Positions 11,347-21,658 of a DNA stretch of 64,000 nt are shown here, piece after piece (within the stretch, counting starts at the first letter, position 1; each line of letters opens with the position of its first letter). Both the position numbers and the translations under genes were made by a program. The notes under the pieces were generated by a model that saw only the letters and a list, made by a program, of their open reading frames with translations, searched no databases and had not been told where the DNA came from. The stretch spans positions 13,249-77,248 of the forward strand of contig JBPOIH010000007.1 of NCBI GenBank assembly GCA_052034685.1. The letters are read 5' to 3'. The stretch comes from Patescibacteria group bacterium. Lineage in GTDB: Bacteria; Patescibacteriota; Saccharimonadia; Saccharimonadales; CAYUUR01.

Positions 11347-14300
11347 TACGCTACCTCCTTCTCTGCTTCATCATCTGAGACGGCTACCGAAGCCTCGTCT
11401 GCATCATCGGATGTATCATCCGCAACTACTGTCGTGGTTGCACTGCCGTGCAGTTCATCGTCAAGTTCCATCATGGCAAACTCGTCTGTGACTGCATCTT
11501 CAGTAATATCGATGTTGTTAATTTCTTCTGTAGGCACAGGAACGTCTGAAATATGTGCTGCTTCGTCTTTGACGTTGTCAGCAAGCACTTCTTCAGCGTC
11601 AATGACAGCATCTGATGTTACGAGGTCAACCTTAAGGCCAAGACCTTGTAGCTCTTTTACAAGCACGTTGAACGATTCAGGGACCTTTGGTCCAACAATC
11701 TCTGTCTTCTTAATGATAGACTCGTAAGCTTTGCTACGACCATACACATCGTCTGACTTGATAGTCAGCATTTCTTGCAAGGTGTTTGATGCGCCGTATG
11801 CTTCGAGCGCCCACACTTCCATTTCTCCAAATCGCTGACCACCGTTTTGCGCCTTACCGCCAAGAGGCTGTTGCGTCACCATGGTGTATGGACCAGTTGA
11901 ACGCGCGTGGATCTTGTCAGTAACCATGTGATTGAGCTTAATCATGTACATACTACCGACGGTAGTGCGTTCCTTGAAGGCTTCACCGGTACGCCCATCA
12001 TAGAGCTGCTGCTTGCCGTCTTCTGGCAGACCAGCCTCTTTGAGGAGTTCTTGGATAGTCGTAATCTTAACACCGTCGAATGATGGACTTGCAACGGTAA
12101 TACCGAGTGCGCGAGCTGCCATACCAAGGTGTGTTTCAAACAGCTGTCCTACGTTCATACGACTTGGCACGCCCAACGGGTTCAACACGATGTCGATTGG
12201 CGTACCATCTTCTGTGAATGGCATGTCTTCAATCGGCATAACGCGGGCGATAACACCCTTGTTACCGTGACGTCCACCAAGCTTATCGCCAACAGAGATC
12301 TTGCGCATTTGAGCCACAAAGACTTGGATCTGCATGATGACACCAGCTTTGAGTTCATGTCCGTTCGCACGTGAGAAGACTTTGACGCCAACAACTTTAC
12401 CGTGCTTACCGTTACTCATACGCTGTGATGTATCACGAACTTCTTTGGCTTTTTCACCAAAGATAGCTCGCAGCAAGCGTTCTTCGCTAGAAAGCTCTTG
12501 TTCGCCCTTTGGCGTAATCTTACCAACCAAGATGTCTCCTGGGTGGACTTCTGCACCAATACGGACAATACCGTCTTCATCAAGGTGACGAAGTGCGTCT
12601 TCTGAAACATTCGGGATATCACGAGTAACAATTTCAGGGCCTAACTTTGTCTCGCGAACTTCCGTCATGTAGTCCACGATATGAACTGATGTCAGCGTGT
12701 CGTCTTCCACGAGTTTACGAGAGATGATGATAGCATCTTCAAAGTTGTAACCACGCCATGGCATGAATGCTACAAAGAGATCCTTGCCAAGTGCCAGTTC
12801 GCCCTTAGAGATCGACATACCTTCGATAAGCACATCGTCTTTTTTAACCTTCTGACCAGCTGTTACGACAACCTTTTGGTTGATGCTAGTGCCTTCGTTG
12901 CTACGAACGTAGTGAAGTGGTTCGTACTTGACGCTGCCGCTCTTGTATTTAACAACTACTTCGTCAGCTGAGGCCCGCGTTACTTCACCGGCGTCTTCAG
13001 CAAGGATCATTTGACCACTGTTACGAGCAACAGCACCTTCTAGACCAGTACCAACAATTGGCGCTTGTGGCTTAATAAGCGGAACAGCTTGACGCTGCTG
13101 GTTACTACCCATCAATGAGCGATACACATAGTTCTTTTCAATGAACGGAATCAGACCGGCTGATGAACCGATAATCTGCTTACGCGATGCATCCATGTGT
13201 GTTACATCGTTAGAATCAACTTCACCTGTCTGCAAGCGGTTACGAGCACTCACGCGCTCACTTACAAAGTAGCCGTTTTCATCAAGTTCTTCAGTAGCGT
13301 TAGCGATGGTCGCTGATTCTTCTGCAGATGCGTCAAGATAGATAACTTCATTTGTTACCTTGGCTCGTACCGGCCATGTTACTTGATTCTTGACGGTTGC
13401 TAGCTTTTTAGCATCTGCATCCGTAATCGTTGCACCAGCCTTGACAATAACTTTACCTTTTTCGTCTTCGAGGTTAACTCGAGCAATATAGCCAGCTGCA
13501 TCTTTAGCAGTAACAGCGTTAACTACTTTACGGTACGGTGTTTCAACCAATCCGTAGTCATTAATTCGAGCATAGCTAGCAAGGTTTAGTACCAAGCCGA
13601 TGTTGGCGCCTTCTGGAGTTTCAACTGCACAGATACGACCGTAGTGGGTGGCATGCGCGTCACGTACTTCAAAACCGGCACGTTCACGAGACAATCCACC
13701 AGGACCCATTGAACTCAGGCGTCGCTTGTGAGCAAGCTCAGACAGTGGGTTAATCTGATCCATGAACTGAGAAAGCTGTGATGAAGCAAAGAATTCACGC
13801 ACCGCAGCAACAATTGGACGAGCATTGATGAGCTGGCCGGGAGTAACCGTCTCAATCTCTGACATGCTCATTCTGTCCTTAGTATTGCGTTCCATACGGA
13901 GCAAACCGATACGGAATTGTCGTTGTACGAGTTCGCCAACCAATTTAACACGACGGTTTGCGAGTGAATCGATATCGTCAGCAGGTTCCTGCGTGTTATT
14001 AAGGCGGATAAGCTCTGCAATAATCGCCGTAAGGTCTTCAAGACGCATAATACGGTTTTCTGCAGTGTTAGGGATGTCGATGTTCAGACGTTTGTTGATC
14101 TTATAACGACCAACACGACTAAAGTCAAAACGCTTGAAGTTATAGAACATGTTTTCTAGTAGACTTCGCGCGTTGTCTACTGTTGCAAGATCACCGGGTC
14201 GCAAGCGACGATAAACTTCAATCAAGGCATCATTTGTGCCACGAGCAGGGTCCTTGTCAAGCGTTGCAGTAATGTGGCTTAGTTTACCCTGATCAACATG

Positions 14301-14933: not shown

Positions 14934-15073
14934 GTAAAGCAATACTCCCGTGTTATAAATTGATTGTTTTTGGTTACTCTTGCGCGCGAAGACTCTAAGA
15001 GGGGGTTTTAGGTGCTTATCTGTGCTTTTGAGAGGCAACTACAGCACTACCCACTTACCCTACTTCTCGGTGT

Positions 15074-15102
15074 ATTCTATCTATCAATAACACAAGTGTC
15101 AA
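15074..15102 (-). promoter_or_regulatory. Candidate sigma-70-type promoter for rpoB-rpoC
   Basis: The minus strand reads TTGACA-cttgtgttattgataga-TAGAAT with a 17-nt spacer, about 140 nt upstream of the rpoB ATG and directly after the stop of the upstream ORF. Confidence 0.5.
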
Positions 15103-15112
15103 GCGCTTGGCA

Positions 15113-15778
15113 TCAACTCATTGAGATCTGATGTAAGCCACGACCTATCTCTTTGTCGCCAACAATGCCTAAAATTTCAATAAACAAGCGATTCATATTG
15201 GGTGCTTCATAAGCGGTTTGTTCAATAGTAAATTGGCCCAGCCTGAGTGTCTCTGGATCGCTGCGTTGTTCAAATCTGGTTTGGTCAACCAGCTCTTCAA
15301 GGAATTCTTCACCCTTCCAAACATGTATGCTTACTGGTTGATCATTGCACTCACGTAAAGCCAAAGCAGCCATAACATAGGTCATAGCTTGATCGGGTGC
15401 AATCAACTCTCTTATAACTCGGTAACGGTGTGGCAAGAGTTCAGAAACATGGAGTTTAGCTGCGCGCTCTATGCTTCCAATTGGCCAGGGCCGCTTACTC
15501 GATACATTGTCGGCCGTAGTGCAGATCGCATCAAGCCCAGATGCACTGTCATGAACGACAACGCTTCGGTGTGCGTAACGTTGCCGAGAACGGTTGAGTT
15601 CAGTACCAACGGTACGGTTTGGATACGCCCAGTTAAGCGGTTCTGTATTTGCAACCGCTGCACCGCGTTGCACTCCAAGCATTTGAGCATAATAACCAAG
15701 ACGTAATTCTTGCACCTCAGGCCAGTGTTGCTGCATGAGCTCCGCTGGCGTTGTTTCGGCATAAGCTGAGTGTTCCAT
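15113..15778 (-). CDS. Hypothetical protein (221 aa) between clpP and rpoB
   Basis: ORF MEHSAYAETTPAELMQQHWPEVQELRLGYYAQML... I recognise no motif in it. It occupies the position where rplKAJL usually precedes rpoB. Confidence 0.5.
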   Translation of the reverse strand: MEHSAYAETTPAELMQQHWPEVQELRLGYYAQMLGVQRGAAVANTEPLNWAYPNRTVGTELNRSRQRYAHRSVVVHDSASGLDAICTTADNVSSKRPWPIGSIERAAKLHVSELLPHRYRVIRELIAPDQAMTYVMAALALRECNDQPVSIHVWKGEEFLEELVDQTRFEQRSDPETLRLGQFTIEQTAYEAPNMNRLFIEILGIVGDKEIGRGLHQISMS

Positions 15779-15819
15779 AATGTTATGGTAGCACAGCCTA
15801 CACGCTGAAACATGAGCGT

Positions 15820-16428
15820 TTACTTTGGCGGGTTGTCTATGATCTTATCGACAATGCCGTATTTGAGTGACTCAGTAGCAGTCATCCACTTATCGCGTTC
15901 CATGTCTTCGTGAATTTTAGCTACTTTTTGACCAGTGTTTTTAGCCATAATCTCTTCAAGTAACTTCTTAACGCGCAGACTTTCACGCAGGTCAATTTCT
16001 TGATCTGTTACTTTTCCACGAGTACCACTGGAAGGCTGATGAACCATCACGGATGCATTTGGCAAGATCATGCGCTTACCTTTGGTGCCGCTGCTTAGTA
16101 TAAATGCTGCTGCACTCGCCTGAATGCCAATGCCGACAGTTTGGATATCACTCTTAACAAAGTTCATAGTGTCGTAGATCGCCAATGCATCATAGACGCT
16201 ACCGCCAGGACTGTTGATATACAGGTATATGTCTTTGCCAGGGTTTTCATTATCAAGAAAGAGCAATTGTGCCACGATAAGGTTAGCAGTATGCGGATTA
16301 ACATCTTCACCCATAAAGATAATACGGTCACGCAACAAACGAGAATATATATCGTAGGCGCGCTCCATGCGACCCTCTGATTCAATTACAGTTGGTATAA
16401 GTGCTGCGTGTGGCGTTTGAGTAGTCAT
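15820..16428 (-). CDS. clpP: ATP-dependent Clp protease proteolytic subunit
   Basis: 202 aa. The catalytic triad is alignable to E. coli ClpP: Ser in GIQASAAAF, His in MVHQPS, Asp in YGIVDKII. Confidence 0.95.
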
Positions 16429-16473
16429 AACTCAACTATAGCAAAGCGAATTGGCACTCGTCAAGTGAGAGTG

Positions 16474-16767
16474 CTAGTTTGTTGTGATAGTCTGTGACAG
16501 TACTTGTGTTACACCTAGCGCGGCTGCTTCGTTCCGGCGTTCAATGTGATCGGCACCGAGATATAAACTTGCTTGAGCAACAAGCGCTGTCATGCCAGCC
16601 CCAATAGTATGAATAACGTCTTGTACTTCTATTGTAGTACTAAGATCATGCTTCACCTCAAGTACCGTCATGGCCACACTAAGCACAGCAGCACCGAGTG
16701 TTGCTATTTTGCCCATAGAACCAAGATCTTCTTGTTGTGCAAGCGTTATTGATGAATATCTTTCCAT
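16474..16767 (-). CDS. Hypothetical small hydrophobic protein (97 aa)
   Basis: MERYSSITLAQQEDLGSMGKIATLGAAVLSVAMTVLEV... It lies between the transposon's left end and clpP. Confidence 0.35.
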   Translation of the reverse strand: MERYSSITLAQQEDLGSMGKIATLGAAVLSVAMTVLEVKHDLSTTIEVQDVIHTIGAGMTALVAQASLYLGADHIERRNEAAALGVTQVLSQTITTN

Positions 16768-16809
16768 AAGAAGCCTATTATACCATACATTCCGTATGTG
16801 TCTATACTA

Positions 16810-16815
16810 TTTCAC
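16810..16815. repeat. Left copy of the candidate target-site duplication (tttcac; reads tatttcac if taken as 8 bp)
   Basis: Identical tttcac sits immediately outside both terminal inverted repeats (16810..16815 and 21460..21465). Confidence 0.6.
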
Positions 16816-16842
16816 TAGCACTAATATACTTGACTAATCAAT
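16816..16842. repeat. Left terminal inverted repeat (27 bp) of the IS1595-family cargo transposon
   Basis: TAGCACTAATATACTTGACTAATCAAT is a perfect reverse complement of 21433..21459. Confidence 0.85.
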
Positions 16843-16864
16843 AACAGGGGTGTAAACTAAAAGT

Positions 16865-17764
16865 ATGAAGTATCCGACCACCCTCCTTGAAGCAGTTCGC
16901 TACTTTTCTGACCCAGAGGTGTGCGTTTCATATATGGCTAGCTTGCGTTGGCCAGATGGTGCTATTTGCCCCACCTGTGGCCGTACAGACGTAAGCATTC
17001 TGAAAAGTCAGCAACGCTTTCAGTGTAAGTCACGTCACGCTAAACGACAGTTCTCCGTTAAGGTCGGCACCATCTTTGAAGATAGCCCACTCGGACTAGA
17101 TAAATGGCTCCCAGCTGTCTGGATGATCGTTAATTCTAAAAACGGTGTCAGCTCGTACGAAATAGCTCGAGCATTAGGCGTAACTCAAAAGACTGCTTGG
17201 TTTATGGATCATCGCATTCGAGCTGCCATGAAGTATGGTGGCTTTGACAAACTTGACGACCCCGTAGAAGCAGATGAAACCTACATAGGCGGTAAAACCA
17301 CTGAAGAGCGTGGACGGTTTAGCAATAAGTCGGCCGTTATTGGTGTCGTCGAAAAGAAAAAGAATGTTGGCCAAATACGAGCTTTCGCTACTAAACATGC
17401 TGACGCTACGGTAGCACTGCCGTTTTTGCGAGCCCAGCTCAAACAAGGTGCAACCTTGTATACAGACGAAAGCCGAATATACCATCGAGCTAAGTTCGAG
17501 TTTTTTCACGAGTCAGTTAACCACCATGACGGCGAGTATGCCCGTGGCACAGTTTCAACTACGACCATAGATGGTTTTTGGAACTTAATGAAACGCTCCA
17601 TCAAAGGAACATATACCCATGTGTCGGCTGGTCACCTAAACAAATATGTAGACGAGCACACTTATCGCTACAACACCCGTGCACTTAAAGACAGCGAACG
17701 GTTTAACCACTGGTTTAGTACTTGCAACCAGCGACTACTGTACAAAGCTTTAGTAGGTCGTTAA
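16865..17764 (+). CDS. IS1595-family (ISXO2-like) DDE transposase
   Basis: 299 aa. N-terminal zinc ribbon CPTCG...C. ISXO2-like core LDKWLPAVWMIVNSKNGVSSYEIARALGVTQKTAWFMDHRIR...TDESRIYH...HESVNHHDGEYARG...GFWNLMKRSIKGTYTHVSAGHLNKYVDEHTYRYN. Confidence 0.9.
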   Translation: MKYPTTLLEAVRYFSDPEVCVSYMASLRWPDGAICPTCGRTDVSILKSQQRFQCKSRHAKRQFSVKVGTIFEDSPLGLDKWLPAVWMIVNSKNGVSSYEIARALGVTQKTAWFMDHRIRAAMKYGGFDKLDDPVEADETYIGGKTTEERGRFSNKSAVIGVVEKKKNVGQIRAFATKHADATVALPFLRAQLKQGATLYTDESRIYHRAKFEFFHESVNHHDGEYARGTVSTTTIDGFWNLMKRSIKGTYTHVSAGHLNKYVDEHTYRYNTRALKDSERFNHWFSTCNQRLLYKALVGR

Positions 17765-17937
17765 TACTTCAGCCCATGAAGTATTAAGCTCAATACCTAA
17801 CAGATATAAGTACACTTCTTCTTATTCCTTTTTTCTTTATAAATAAAGTGGAGCATTTTCTTTTTCTTTCTTCTCGCTATACAGTGGGTAGTAACGTGAG
17901 TGTATGGTGGTAGCTTGCAGTAGATGAGGCAATCGCT

Positions 17938-18828
17938 ATGGACAGTAAAACTAGACTAACTAAACAGCAATTCGATTTACTCAGATTCATATATTCACAT
18001 AGGTTTGTAACGACGAAACAGGTACAAAGATATCTAGCTAAGAGCCATATTCAGGAAGCACAGCAAAGACTAAATACTTTACTAGCTAAACAGTATATTG
18101 GTCGCAGATACAGTAGCGATGACAAGTTACTTGGACGCTACGCTAGCTACTTTCTCTTACCGGACGGCATGGAACTTATTAAAGGCCATGCCGACCTTAA
18201 AGCCCTACGACTGATGCATAAAGATCCGACTGCTTCTCAGCGATTCATTGACCACAATATTGCCGTTGGGGATGTAGCCGCAGACATAAAACATATGCTC
18301 AAAGACGTACTGGATGAAGTAGATTTCCATACCAAGACCGATATTATGTACCAGTCCAGAGTTGAATACGAAAGTAATTGGGACGGCAGTGATGACTTTG
18401 AGGTTATGACCGATTTCTACACCAAGCCAATGCCAGACGGCCATTTACAAGGCTGGCCAGTTGACTACGAAAATGTAACTTTTATCGGCTTTTTTGTTGA
18501 GGTATGGCACGACAGCGTACCGTTCTGGGTCTACCGCAAACGAATACAGTATCTTATTGAATACACCGACGACGAAACCTGGCAGGAATATAACAGTGGT
18601 AGTGACACTCCACCCTTTTTGCTAGTTTGCGACAATCCAACCTTACAACGGCGTGTGCAGCGATATCTACGCAGAATTTACGATAGTGTAAGTCATGACT
18701 ACCAATTCTTAGTCACAAACCGACAGTTATTAGCTGAAGCCAAAAGTAACGATGCTATTTGGACAAGAGTGGACGATGAAGTTACAGAGACTATACAGTT
18801 GACGGATGTGCCGGAGGGGTATGAGTAG
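17938..18828 (+). CDS. Replication-relaxation (Replic_Relax) family winged-helix protein, transposon cargo
   Basis: 296 aa. The N-terminus LTKQQFDLLRFIYSHRFVTTKQVQRYL matches the L-T-x-x-D/Q-x-x-I/L-L-x-x-L-x-x-H-R-V/F-x-T-T-x-Q-L/V signature of plasmid replication-relaxation proteins. This call is from memory of the family. Confidence 0.55.
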   Translation: MDSKTRLTKQQFDLLRFIYSHRFVTTKQVQRYLAKSHIQEAQQRLNTLLAKQYIGRRYSSDDKLLGRYASYFLLPDGMELIKGHADLKALRLMHKDPTASQRFIDHNIAVGDVAADIKHMLKDVLDEVDFHTKTDIMYQSRVEYESNWDGSDDFEVMTDFYTKPMPDGHLQGWPVDYENVTFIGFFVEVWHDSVPFWVYRKRIQYLIEYTDDETWQEYNSGSDTPPFLLVCDNPTLQRRVQRYLRRIYDSVSHDYQFLVTNRQLLAEAKSNDAIWTRVDDEVTETIQLTDVPEGYE

Positions 18829-18854
18829 AGGCGAGACATAGTATAATTACCTCT

Positions 18855-19388
18855 ATGAACGCATATCATATAACTGGCGCATCGGGTTCGGGCAAAAGTC
18901 ATGTTGGACGTGAGCTCGGTAAAAGAGGCTTTCGTGTAATCGAGACTGACTTTGAGCCAGGCTTAAGCGATTGGGCTCACAAAGAAACTCGACAAAGGGC
19001 TGAGGAACCGAGACAACCATTTCCAACTGAATGGGTTGAAGCACACGGTTGGTACTGGGACAGAGATAAAATGCATGAACTCGTTGAAGGCACTGGCGAT
19101 GTTCCAGTATTCTTCGTGGGTGGGGCTCACAATGAAACAGAGTTCTATCCGCTATTCCGAAAACGTTTTGGTTTATTTATAGATGATAAAGACGAGCTGA
19201 CCAGAAGGCTGCAGGAGCGTGAACCGGAAAGATGGATTGACGGTTCGCAAGAGCTTACGAATGTACTGGAATGGAATGACAAATCCAGAGCATTCAATGA
19301 GCAGCACGGTGCGATATCCATAGACAGCTCACAACCTGTTGAAACTATTGCCGACGTTATACTTAAGCATGTAGACGGAGATACGTAA
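18855..19388 (+). CDS. Small P-loop kinase (AAA_33; TmrB/chloramphenicol-phosphotransferase/gluconokinase-like), transposon cargo
   Basis: 177 aa. Walker A HITGASGSGKSHVGREL resembles TmrB INGAFGSGKTQTAFEL and GntK GVSGSGKS. Its size matches CPT/TmrB-type small-molecule kinases. Its stop overlaps the next ATG as TAATG. Confidence 0.65.
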   Translation: MNAYHITGASGSGKSHVGRELGKRGFRVIETDFEPGLSDWAHKETRQRAEEPRQPFPTEWVEAHGWYWDRDKMHELVEGTGDVPVFFVGGAHNETEFYPLFRKRFGLFIDDKDELTRRLQEREPERWIDGSQELTNVLEWNDKSRAFNEQHGAISIDSSQPVETIADVILKHVDGDT

Positions 19389-21274
19389 TGAAGCCAGAGA
19401 CAACCATACGTCCGTACACTCCTGAAGACATACCGAGCATGCACAACGTGGCAATTCGTGCAGCAGAGCACGATAGTGTAGACCCACTGTCTACTCTTGA
19501 GTCAATGCCCTCGTTGGAACAAATAGTAGAGTCTTTGGAAAGTAATAACACTGATCCAAATTCAGATGTGTTTGTGGCGGTGGATGAAAAAACAAAAGAT
19601 ATAGTCGGTTATGGCAAAATTGGCTGGTGGCAAGAAGAAGACGGTACCTTTGTCTATATTCACCAAGGACAAGTTGATCCAAAACACAGAGGCCACGGTG
19701 TCGGTCAAGAGCTTTTGCAAACACTACAATCTAGGATACGAGAAGTTGCTAACGGTCATCCAGAAGACAAACCTAAAACTTTTGGAGCTAATGCGAGTGA
19801 GTCTGAAGAAGGAGCATTAAAACTGCTCGAAAAAGATGGTTACAAAAAGGTGTGGTCACAAGTGGAGATGGAATTTACAGATTTTGACGATCTAAATGCC
19901 GTTGAACAACCGGAGGGTTTCGAATTTAGAGCTCCTACAACACTTGAGGAAAGACGAAAAGTTTATGAATTGAACGTTCGTGTATATGAAGGCCGTCCAG
20001 GGGCAGTTCCAGCTTCAGAAGAAGGCTTTCAAGAATTTCTCGAAGAAAATGCCGACCTTTCATTATGGAAAGTCGCATGGGATGGTGACAATATTGCCGG
20101 GTTTGTACTTGGCCGTTCCGACAAAGATAAGGGTGAGGTCACAGAGGTAGCCACTGCCCCAGAGTATCGACGTAGAGGTCTCGGTAAATGGTTAATGACT
20201 GAAAATATAAAAGCTCTTCACGAACAAGGGAATGAAATCATTCGTCTACACACCAACTCTGACGGTGCTCAAGGTGGAAGACAGCTTTATGAAAGCATGG
20301 GCTTCTCTGCACTCAAAGAAAGTCATAGATTACGCAAACCACTGAGAGAGTCAAAAATCAATCCTGAAGAAGTTGAAGCAGACACCATAGACGCAAACGA
20401 AAGCTGGCAAGCTGTCGAGCAACAGCTACCCCATATCAAAGATGTTGAAGGTGGCTTTAGTAAAGCTCAGCGTGGACTCGTGACCCTGCCAGACGGCAAA
20501 GAGGTGTTCGTTAAGGTTGGCACAGCAGAGAATACTCGGATTTGGGCACGAAAAGAAGTCGCCGTGTATAAGGCTTTAGAGGCTCATGGCTTCGAGCACA
20601 GCCCACGACTTATTGCTGCAAATGCTGATGGTTCAGCCTTTGCCCTTGAAGCCTTTAGTCCCGAAGATGGTTGGGATTGGCAAGATAACTGGACTGCTGA
20701 AAGATTAGCAGCAACACTCAAAGCCATGGATGACTTGGCAGCTATTGAGCTTAGCGATGCTGAGCGTACTATATTCATTAAAAGCAGTATTAGCCAGGAT
20801 GAAGATGGCTGGCGACCACTTTTAGAGTCACCCGAAATGCAGGAAATATTACGGCATAAACTCCATGGAGTAGGTGCGGACGATATCGCACAAAGTATTG
20901 ATTTTACTGCTGATACAGACAAAGCCAGCAGGTATGACTTCGCTGATGATGCGCTTGTACACTACGATCTTAGGGCCGATAACTGTGCGTGGAATGCAGA
21001 GACTGGACAGGTTCGTTTAGTTGATTGGAACTGGGCACAATTTGGTGATAGAGATATTGACCTGGCAGCCACTCTAACGCACGTTCAAAAGTCCGGTTTT
21101 GATATTCCTGTTGAGCTTATTGAAAAAGTAAACCCTGATGCATTTCACTGGATGGCTGGCTTCTGGCTTAATGCTGCTGCAACACCGATTTGGGAAGGTG
21201 GCTCTGAGAGTTTACGTGACCTACAGCTACTTTCTGGGATTACGGCACTCAGATTAGCAAAGGCCAAGCAGTGA
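19388..21274 (+). CDS. Tandem GNAT N-acetyltransferase fused to an aminoglycoside-phosphotransferase-like kinase domain (628 aa), transposon cargo
   Basis: GNAT motif A appears twice: QVDPKHRGHGVGQELL at aa 95-110 and VATAPEYRRRGLGKWLM at aa 254-270. The C-terminal roughly 290 aa carry APH/choline-kinase catalytic motifs: HYDLRADN (HxDxxxxN) and LVDWNWAQFGD (the DW..A Mg-binding loop). Confidence 0.75.
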   Translation: MKPETTIRPYTPEDIPSMHNVAIRAAEHDSVDPLSTLESMPSLEQIVESLESNNTDPNSDVFVAVDEKTKDIVGYGKIGWWQEEDGTFVYIHQGQVDPKHRGHGVGQELLQTLQSRIREVANGHPEDKPKTFGANASESEEGALKLLEKDGYKKVWSQVEMEFTDFDDLNAVEQPEGFEFRAPTTLEERRKVYELNVRVYEGRPGAVPASEEGFQEFLEENADLSLWKVAWDGDNIAGFVLGRSDKDKGEVTEVATAPEYRRRGLGKWLMTENIKALHEQGNEIIRLHTNSDGAQGGRQLYESMGFSALKESHRLRKPLRESKINPEEVEADTIDANESWQAVEQQLPHIKDVEGGFSKAQRGLVTLPDGKEVFVKVGTAENTRIWARKEVAVYKALEAHGFEHSPRLIAANADGSAFALEAFSPEDGWDWQDNWTAERLAATLKAMDDLAAIELSDAERTIFIKSSISQDEDGWRPLLESPEMQEILRHKLHGVGADDIAQSIDFTADTDKASRYDFADDALVHYDLRADNCAWNAETGQVRLVDWNWAQFGDRDIDLAATLTHVQKSGFDIPVELIEKVNPDAFHWMAGFWLNAAATPIWEGGSESLRDLQLLSGITALRLAKAKQ

Positions 21275-21421
21275 CAGCAAAAAAGAAATCCGAAGTTCCG
21301 AAGAAGATCATTGTAGATGTTTCAGAAAACAGCCCAATGGGAAAATTTCATAAGGCTATGAAAAAGATCGTGTCTGTTTCTAAAGAAAAACTGAAAGATA
21401 AATAGATCATGTCCAAGGCAC

Positions 21422-21658
21422 TTATTTTGAACATTGATTAGTCAAGTATATTAGTGCTATTTCACTGTTTTCTTGGTAGGCGCCACTAATGCAGTCAGGC
21501 CCGTCGATTGCCACCCTTAAGCGTTGACGTCGTTGCATGAACTCTCTGAATTCACACAGCTTGCGTTGTTGCTCGTCTTCTAGGGCGCTATAAGTCACCA
21601 ACTCAATGCCCGGCATAGCACGACTCAACAGATTATCATCTGGTCTTTGACTCTCCAT
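21422..21658 (-). CDS. Small hypothetical ORF (78 aa) downstream of tig. Its last 12 codons run through the transposon's right inverted repeat.
   Basis: MESQRPDDNLLSRAMPGIELVTYSALEDEQQRKL... Reconstructing the pre-insertion sequence gives ...QENSEIV-stop instead of ...QENSEIALIYLTNQCSK-stop. Confidence 0.3.
   Translation of the reverse strand: MESQRPDDNLLSRAMPGIELVTYSALEDEQQRKLCEFREFMQRRQRLRVAIDGPDCISGAYQENSEIALIYLTNQCSK
21433..21459. repeat. Right terminal inverted repeat (27 bp)
   Basis: ATTGATTAGTCAAGTATATTAGTGCTA is the reverse complement of 16816..16842. It is followed by the right target-site-duplication copy tttcac at 21460..21465. Confidence 0.85.

Follow-up and report, generated by a model that had tools for sequence, protein, structure and literature searches.

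Positions 13,249 to 77,248 of contig JBPOIH010000007.1, a 64,000-nucleotide (nt) stretch of a Candidatus Saccharibacteria genome that we call the window, contain a 4642-bp IS1595-family transposon with cargo (16817-21458 of the window), inserted between clpP and tig. Its cargo consists of two overlapping genes, one for a P-loop protein of 177 amino acids (aa) and one for a 628-aa protein in which two GNAT acetyltransferase domains precede an APH/choline-kinase-fold domain. The backbone of the element is constant and its cargo slot is swappable, three cargo versions having been seen, and the insertion is polymorphic in natural populations. Judged from the mosaic of its homologies, the 628-aa protein is a recent chimera confined to this element. 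All genes of the element are under purifying selection. As to function, we tentatively favor detoxification or resistance, with somewhat less than even confidence: the cassette would inactivate an antibiotic or toxin, aminoglycoside-like or of peptide type, that the epibiont encounters in its niche.

Structure and mobility of the transposon

The transposase scores 168.5 bits against the IS1595 model NF033547 (cut-off 75) and matches the Pfam families DDE_Tnp_IS1595 (PF12762, 1.4e-32) and Zn_ribbon_IS1595 (PF12760, 4.9e-9). A perfect inverted repeat, which does not occur elsewhere in the window, brackets the four genes. The termini were set as AGCAC...GTGCT by comparing three independent insertions, and an earlier assignment of a 27-bp inverted repeat with a 6-bp duplication was replaced by 26 bp and 8 bp. 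The repeats and the 8-bp duplication likewise place the element in the IS1595 family, for which 8 bp is the typical length of the target duplication. The transposase, the repeats and the duplication thus bear out the location on a transposon that a sequence-only reading of this DNA had claimed.

Each of the three independent insertions has an 8-bp duplication of its own. The window and L006 share ATTTCACT, L005 and L008 share AAATAGCT, and L101 has CAAAGATT. A reconstruction of the empty site predicted a 68-aa open reading frame (ORF) ending in ...QENSEIV, and exactly this protein was found in public assemblies. Three contigs (L105, L106 and L107) represent such empty sites, with tig, the 68-aa ORF, a 97-aa ORF, clpP and a single ATTTCACT, the element being absent. 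One of them, L106, shares its sample (ERZ23795167) with L005, which carries the element at a different site. An empty site and a second-site copy in one sample mean that the insertion is polymorphic and that the element has been mobile between genomes that are closely related.

The insertion affects the small ORF downstream of tig (21422-21658, minus strand), which has 78 aa in the window and 68 aa in the empty-site genomes; the last codon is exchanged for 11 residues encoded by the element. Gene disruption was considered and rejected, since only the last residue of the 68-aa ORF is replaced. The right flank of the element is 99.4-99.8% identical to the three empty-site contigs. On the left, the adjoining 1.1 kb (15675-16816, with clpP and the 97-aa ORF) is only about 81% identical, the segment 15106-15674 with a 221-aa ORF has no match in these contigs, and beyond it, at 15000-15105, the sequences are again 95% identical. 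The insertion point seems to coincide exactly with the end of a recombination tract, and these identities suggest that the element may have arrived together with the divergent left flank.

The order of the backbone is left inverted repeat, transposase, a Replication-relaxation family protein (Replic_Relax), variable cargo, a 44-aa ORF and right inverted repeat. A weak promoter-like site (TTGACT-17-TAAACT at 16830-16858) overlaps the left inverted repeat. The small ORF (MTAKKKSEVPKK...KFHKAMKKIVS..KEKLKDK, 44-46 aa) recurs in the sister elements L014 (8019-8153, with an ATGA overlap) and L101 (6670-6810) and adjoins the right end in all three transposon variants; its ratio of nonsynonymous to synonymous substitution rates (dN/dS) is 0.06 versus L014, and it is probably a real backbone gene. 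No PADLOC defence model matched any of the four element proteins (E<=0.01), and PHROGs returned only generic acetyltransferase families; a defence or phage origin was rejected on these grounds.

The two sister elements reveal the exchange of cargo. L014 has the same left inverted repeat, a transposase with 96% and a Replic_Relax protein with 88% aa identity, and carries a 486-aa single-GNAT+kinase gene without a P-loop gene. Its right inverted repeat was not found on the contig, which stops about 80 nt past the end of homology. L101 (OEIV010000639.1, 1464-6864) is a 5401-bp transposon with both inverted repeats, a transposase with 88% and a Replic_Relax protein with 72% aa identity. Its cargo comprises five unrelated ORFs (110, 273, 195, 231 and 163 aa), mostly on the opposite strand, none of which belongs to a Pfam family.

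Two observations concern the Replic_Relax gene. In the second-site copy (L005, 1176-1790) it is called with 204 aa versus 296; either this copy is at an early stage of decay, or the contig, of 3x coverage, contains an error. Distant homologues (24-25% identity) were found in L001 (11299-12132), L022 (about 12344-12994) and L024 (about 12571-13284), a few kb from GNAT-kinase or triple-GNAT genes in chromosomal islands; the L001 copy adjoins a serine recombinase. Their position hints that the passenger genes of the transposon derive from such islands.

A chimeric GNAT-GNAT-kinase and its P-loop partner

Both cargo ORFs proposed from the sequence alone were recovered on the plus strand, as was their coupling: the 628-aa ORF starts with an ATG that overlaps the stop codon of the 177-aa ORF (TAATG, within GATACGTAATGAAGCC at 19380-19395). 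Three other assemblies (L005, L006 and L007) contain the full 628-aa gene with 99.6-100% nucleotide identity, and the partial contigs L008-L010 reach its first 32-62 codons. The sequence-only reading had named an assembly or frameshift artefact as its own refutation; because the same frame is open in the window and in three further assemblies, the fusion is not an assembly artefact. No paralogues were found elsewhere within the window.

The fusion protein combines two lineages of sequence. Residues 1-338 are 83-86% identical to proteins of about 500 aa with a tandem GNAT and a third GNAT (P0002, P0003 and P0008), and residues 339-628 match the kinase half of the 486-aa single-GNAT+kinase proteins (P0005) with 91% identity. 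At the nucleotide level (blastn), backbone homology to L014 ends at 18816 and restarts at 20405, and the triple-GNAT gene of L011-L013 matches 19387-20381. It follows from this mosaic that an ancestral element like L014 lost the single-GNAT head of its GNAT-kinase gene to a segment with the P-loop gene and the tandem GNAT, the join falling in the interdomain linker. The 107 loci examined included no donor locus, in which the P-loop gene would directly precede a tandem GNAT. The sequence-only reading had not recognised the three-domain layout as a described fusion, and its rarity is now plain: the complete GNAT-GNAT-kinase architecture forms one 90%-identity cluster of 2 sequences among 5.8 billion.

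Purifying selection was seen in backbone and cargo alike. Values of dN/dS lie at 0.02-0.06 across the measured genes of the element, with 0.024 for the transposase versus L014, 0.05 for Replic_Relax and 0.05-0.06 for the kinase half of the fusion; in the GNAT and P-loop parts the nonsynonymous measure pN is far below its synonymous counterpart pS.

The two GNAT domains had been proposed from a twofold motif A, and both are upheld. Pfam Acetyltransf_1 (PF00583) matches the 628-aa protein in two stretches (5.9e-25, 88 bits), and the acetyl-CoA loops RGHGVG and RRRGLG are kept in homologues, so that both domains belong to the GNAT superfamily. The best sequence matches in the PDB are tandem-GNAT structures, 7q3a (1.2e-14) and 3tt2 (8.5e-13). 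The MshD model TIGR03448 aligns with residues 18-309 at 84.1 bits (cut-off 163.1), which leaves the protein outside the MshD family. The AlphaFold2 model of the GNAT half is moderate, with confidence scores (pLDDT) of about 50-85.

The C-terminal domain is a kinase, as the motifs HYDLRADN (residues 525-532) and LVDWNWAQFGD (544-554) had suggested. The Pfam family APH (PF01636) covers residues 350-566 (7e-10, 39.5 bits, cut-off 23.2). In the 69 aligned rows that cover the domain, G356 of the Gly-rich loop, K376, E390, H525, D527, N532 and D546 are each kept in 66-69. The domain is modelled with a pLDDT of about 97 and has Foldseek probability 1.00 to many structures of the APH fold, which places it in the APH/choline-kinase superfamily. 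This structural comparison, which had been called for to set the protein against APH(2''), Mph, Eis/MshD and TmrB enzymes, returned APH(2'')-IIa as the top kinase match, followed by a flat list of further small-molecule kinases: PsiK, LicA, APH(9), MphB and the kinases that act on corramycin, capreomycin and amicoumacin. With a family profile, APH(2'')-Ib (4.6e-5) and APH(2'')-IIa (9.6e-5) are the best matches over most of the domain.

The 177-aa protein has a Walker A motif, a single Pfam match (AAA_18, 1.7e-7) and a model with a pLDDT of 95. It adopts a generic nucleoside-monophosphate (NMP) kinase fold, for which CoaE and AK6 score highest; the Pfam family CoaE itself gave no match, and a profile search of the PDB reached shikimate kinase at E 2.6e-3. 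Kinship with TmrB, chloramphenicol phosphotransferase (CPT) and gluconokinase had been suggested for this protein. The shared fold stands, but these enzymes are not the nearest: CPT and TmrB are no closer than a dozen other families, and neither PF07931 nor a specific structural affinity supports membership in a CPT/TmrB-like family. The 23 homologues retrieved form a compact family (51-69% identity), and the few whose source is named come from Saccharibacteria or Saccharimonadales.

The pairing of the P-loop gene with the fusion did not hold as a conserved operon. Among six contexts of P-loop homologues, an APH gene lies directly downstream in one only (P0018). In the others the neighbors are CYTH (downstream) and HIT (nearby) for P0023, NUDIX for P0021, MazG for P0030 and a SpoU methylase for P0016; P0017 has none of these classes. 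The 180-aa gene 5' of the 486-aa relative in L001 is unrelated to the P-loop gene. Since the neighbors vary, the coupling of the P-loop gene and the fusion is specific to this element.

Upstream of the P-loop gene, a perfect TATAAT was observed at 18842-18847, 7 nt 5' of the ATG, in a 26-nt spacer just past the recombination breakpoint; there is no obvious Shine-Dalgarno sequence. As a consensus match alone, this hexamer may be an internal promoter that would yield a near-leaderless cargo transcript. Promoter and terminator scans gave no enrichment over shuffled sequence.

Table 1. Coordinates of the transposon and of the parts of its cargo in the window.
Feature	Position	Strand	Details
Left target-site duplication, 8 bp, ATTTCACT	16809..16816	.	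Single copy in empty-site contigs L105-L107
Left terminal inverted repeat, 26 bp, AGCACTAATATACTTGACTAATCAAT	16817..16842	+	Kept in L005, L014 (1 mismatch) and L101
IS1595-family DDE transposase, 299 aa, N-terminal zinc ribbon	16865..17764	+	Pfam, NCBIfam
Replication-relaxation family protein, 296 aa, backbone passenger	17938..18828	+	PF13814, 4.1e-10; common to three element variants
Segment replaced relative to L014	18817..20404	+	P-loop gene and tandem-GNAT coding part; blastn
P-loop NMP-kinase-fold gene	18855..19388	+	177 aa; Walker A GASGSGKS; family motifs ETD, VGGAHN, REPERW
GNAT-GNAT-APH fusion gene	19388..21274	+	628 aa; ATG overlaps upstream stop (TAATG)
N-terminal GNAT, about residues 5-165	19400..19882	+	Acetyl-CoA loop HRGHGVGQ at 100-107
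Second GNAT, about residues 173-320	19904..20347	+	Acetyl-CoA loop RRRGLGKW at 261-268; invariant Tyr301
Chimera junction, interdomain linker	20382..20404	+	Triple-GNAT homology ends at 20381; GNAT-kinase homology starts at 20404/20405
APH/choline-kinase-fold domain, residues 339-628	20402..21271	+	K376, E390, H525-x-D527-x4-N532, D546
Lysine-rich small ORF, 44 aa, backbone gene	21271..21405	+	GTG overlaps fusion TGA (GTGA); adjoins right end
Right terminal inverted repeat, 26 bp	21433..21458	-	Inverted-repeat search
Right target-site duplication, 8 bp, ATTTCACT	21459..21466	.	Comparison of insertions and empty sites

Possible functions of the cassette

In the proposed mechanism, the fusion enzyme would apply two chemistries to one small molecule with amine and hydroxyl groups. 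By analogy with MshD, the second GNAT is probably the catalytic one and would carry out acetyl-CoA-dependent N-acetylation, with the first GNAT as a structural or CoA-binding partner; the APH-fold domain would add ATP-dependent O-phosphorylation. A third ATP-dependent phosphotransfer would come from the P-loop protein and would act on the same compound or on a cofactor. As a means of detoxification, such a cassette would be an accessory trait that spreads horizontally; it would work like AAC(6')-Ie-APH(2'')-Ia but not belong to the same family.

We infer drug or toxin modification from the accessory and mobile nature of the cassette, its AAC(6')-Ie-APH(2'')-Ia-like layout, the kinship of the kinase domain with APH(2''), and the ABC-F islands of relatives. 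GNAT, APH-fold and P-loop genes also co-occur repeatedly in non-orthologous forms. The islands are accessory regions of Saccharibacteria rich in genes that modify small molecules. The island of L011 (5288-10836) contains ABC-F, MFS, triple-GNAT, APH and P-loop genes; that of L025 (1241-11760) combines a GNAT-kinase gene, an APH gene and two P-loop kinase genes with genes for serine hydrolases, HEPN_AbiU2, a Pol-beta nucleotidyltransferase and an ABC-F protein; that of L022 (3302-9459) has a trio of triple-GNAT, APH and P-loop genes. The ABC-F genes of L011 and L025 score about 419 bits against NF000355, 'ribosomal protection-like ABC-F' (cut-off 380 bits), and a type IV coupling protein adjoins the arrays in L022 and L025. 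The APH and P-loop genes of L011 were tried as orthologues of the window's parts and rejected (pairwise E 0.04 and 0.06). One P-loop protein of L025 has a weak resemblance to the gentamicin-resistance protein Gar/GrdA (1.8e-7, far below the cut-off).

A more ambitious form of this proposal would see in the cassette a new three-activity module (one acetyl and two phosphoryl transfers) for antibiotic inactivation. It would guard an epibiotic Saccharibacterium from compounds of its actinobacterial host or neighbors, would have been assembled very recently by domain swap in an exchangeable-cargo transposon, and would be spreading in populations of Saccharibacteria by transposition and recombination. 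Taken as a whole, this form is rather unlikely.

A number of observations weigh against detoxification. No curated model of antimicrobial resistance (AMR) in NCBIfam came near its cut-off: the best AMR-type scores were 22 versus 420 bits for STAT, 18 versus 300 for AAC(3)-XI and 15 versus 390 for capreomycin phosphotransferase. The APH(2'') and AAC(6') models gave no match at E<0.1, which leaves the protein outside those families. APH(2'') enzymes are remote relatives (about 25 bits, 15% identity), and their similarity therefore indicates the kind of enzyme but not the substrate. Given the five unrelated ORFs of L101, the cargo of this element family is not generally resistance-like, and the window's own flanks consist of housekeeping genes.

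The kinase family and the P-loop homologues add to these points. The kinase family is small (427 representatives at E<=1e-3 among 1.84 billion), most of its members are stand-alone chromosomal genes of about 300 aa, and the few with a source name come mostly from Saccharimonadales or other members of the candidate phyla radiation (CPR). Nine of the ten long distant relatives tested are fusions with NUDIX (P0244, P0258, P0271, P0276, P0286, P0287, P0278, P0295 and P0256; E 1e-13 to 1e-22), the NUDIX domain being N-terminal in eight and C-terminal in one; this kinase-NUDIX pairing is not known to us. The pattern of stand-alone genes and NUDIX fusions would fit metabolite processing better. For the P-loop protein, the nearest folds are cofactor and nucleotide kinases (CoaE, AK6 and NRK1) and its homologues adjoin NUDIX, CYTH, MazG, HIT or SpoU genes without a fixed partner; folds and neighbors point towards nucleotide or cofactor chemistry.

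The possible, if somewhat unlikely, alternative of salvage draws on much of this evidence. The kinases would phosphorylate host metabolites that an epibiont of reduced biosynthetic capacity has to scavenge, such as an amino sugar, a nucleoside or a cofactor precursor, and the GNATs would N-acetylate the same compound, for example in a conversion of glucosamine to N-acetylglucosamine 1-phosphate (GlcNAc-1-P); the transposon would then spread a nutritional rather than a resistance trait. Besides the stand-alone kinase genes of Saccharimonadales and other CPR bacteria, the NUDIX fusions, the NUDIX, CYTH, MazG and HIT neighbors and the lack of a matching AMR model, the Foldseek list of the fusion contains N-acetyltransferases of glucosamine and glucosamine 6-phosphate and an N-acetylhexosamine 1-kinase. 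However, these sugar enzymes match no better than the antibiotic kinases, and the missing Pfam CoaE match counts against this reading. An accessory, polymorphic cassette with empty sites in near-identical genomes would also be unusual for an essential salvage step, and its close relatives lie in mobile islands together with MFS, nucleotidyltransferase and AbiU2 genes and with ABC-F genes above the ribosomal-protection cut-off.

It is improbable that the cassette acts on proteins, as a regulator or effector, with the APH-fold domain as a Ser/Thr protein kinase of the YihE/RdoA type and the tandem GNAT as a VipF-like protein acetyltransferase, directed at the cell's own or the host's proteins. 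The best PDB sequence match of the kinase domain is indeed a Ser/Thr protein kinase (9av6, E 0.007 with a single sequence and 8e-6 with a profile), but this match spans only the catalytic loop of about 40-70 residues, and the matches over most of the domain are small-molecule kinases. Labels of the Joint Genome Institute (JGI) call several homologues 'Ser/Thr protein kinase RdoA', and tandem-GNAT structures of the Legionella effector VipF are in the Foldseek list; however, no secretion signal or partner was identified. The type IV coupling protein next to the relatives in L022 and L025 could serve an effector but more simply marks a conjugative island.

A non-functional hitch-hiker, an assembly or frameshift chimera or a decaying cargo, to which the restriction of the architecture to a single 90% cluster and the shortened Replic_Relax of L005 (204 aa) might point, is largely refuted and very improbable given the same open frame in the window and three independent assemblies, the intact catalytic residues, the low dN/dS of the kinase half and a pN far below pS in the GNAT and P-loop parts. 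There is a small chance that none of the four readings (detoxification, salvage, action on proteins, artefact or decay) is right.

Comparison with known systems

Resistance in CPR bacteria has been approached through 'ARG-like' genes (genes like those of antibiotic resistance), counted in bulk by homology (PMC8651080); the main text of that study does not contain the words 'bifunctional', 'transposase' or 'mobile genetic'. In the literature searched we found no description of this fusion or of IS1595 cargo elements of Saccharibacteria. Bifunctional enzymes of GNAT-APH type were known before, as were IS1595 elements that carry passenger genes. New are the GNAT-GNAT-kinase architecture and the map of its chimeric origin, an IS1595 element of Saccharibacteria that combines a constant backbone with an exchangeable cargo slot, and direct evidence for the mobility of this element in natural populations.

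If these findings hold, they provide sequence evidence for an active cargo-swapping transposon in an ultra-small episymbiont, with a second site and an empty site from one metagenome sample. Domain shuffling would have been caught almost in the act, both parent architectures being extant and the junction being mapped to about 20 nt. The enzyme pair is compact and can be cloned, and would allow one to ask whether CPR bacteria carry functional mobile drug-modifying enzymes, a question so far approached only through such bulk counts. If the substrate were instead a scavenged metabolite, the cassette would illustrate horizontal trade of salvage functions among reduced symbionts.

A close parallel in layout is AAC(6')-Ie-APH(2'')-Ia, a bifunctional enzyme that modifies aminoglycosides in staphylococci and enterococci. 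In both proteins one chain leads from an N-terminal GNAT to a C-terminal APH-fold kinase, both are transposon-borne, and both combine two orthogonal modifications, N-acetylation and O-phosphorylation, which for the present protein are predicted. Among solved structures, those of APH(2'') enzymes come closest to the kinase domain, and the two-domain layout is shared by the 486-aa parent form (P0005, L014). In contrast to AAC(6')-Ie-APH(2'')-Ia, the present fusion has a tandem GNAT instead of a single one, has no membership in that family at the sequence level, is coupled to an extra P-loop gene and resides on an IS1595 unit transposon rather than on a compound transposon.

The N-terminal half resembles MshD and other tandem-GNAT proteins (7q3a and 3tt2) in having two GNATs in tandem over about 320 residues. 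It differs from MshD in its score below the cut-off (84 versus 163 bits) and in the fused kinase. Some relatives are labelled 'mycothiol synthase' by JGI; because mycothiol is an actinobacterial thiol, this label is probably an automatic over-annotation. The 177-aa protein shares its fold with dephospho-CoA kinase, AK6/hCINAP, NRK1, shikimate and gluconate kinases, CPT and the TmrB-like structure 2vli, but unlike these P-loop kinases it has no family-level sequence match.

Insertion sequences of the IS1595 family with passenger genes have reportedly been described. The present element agrees with them in its zinc-ribbon DDE transposase, short inverted repeats, 8-bp duplication and passengers inside the repeats. 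It differs from known IS1595 elements in its Saccharibacteria host, in its two constant passengers (Replic_Relax and the 44-aa ORF) and in its swappable cargo slot.

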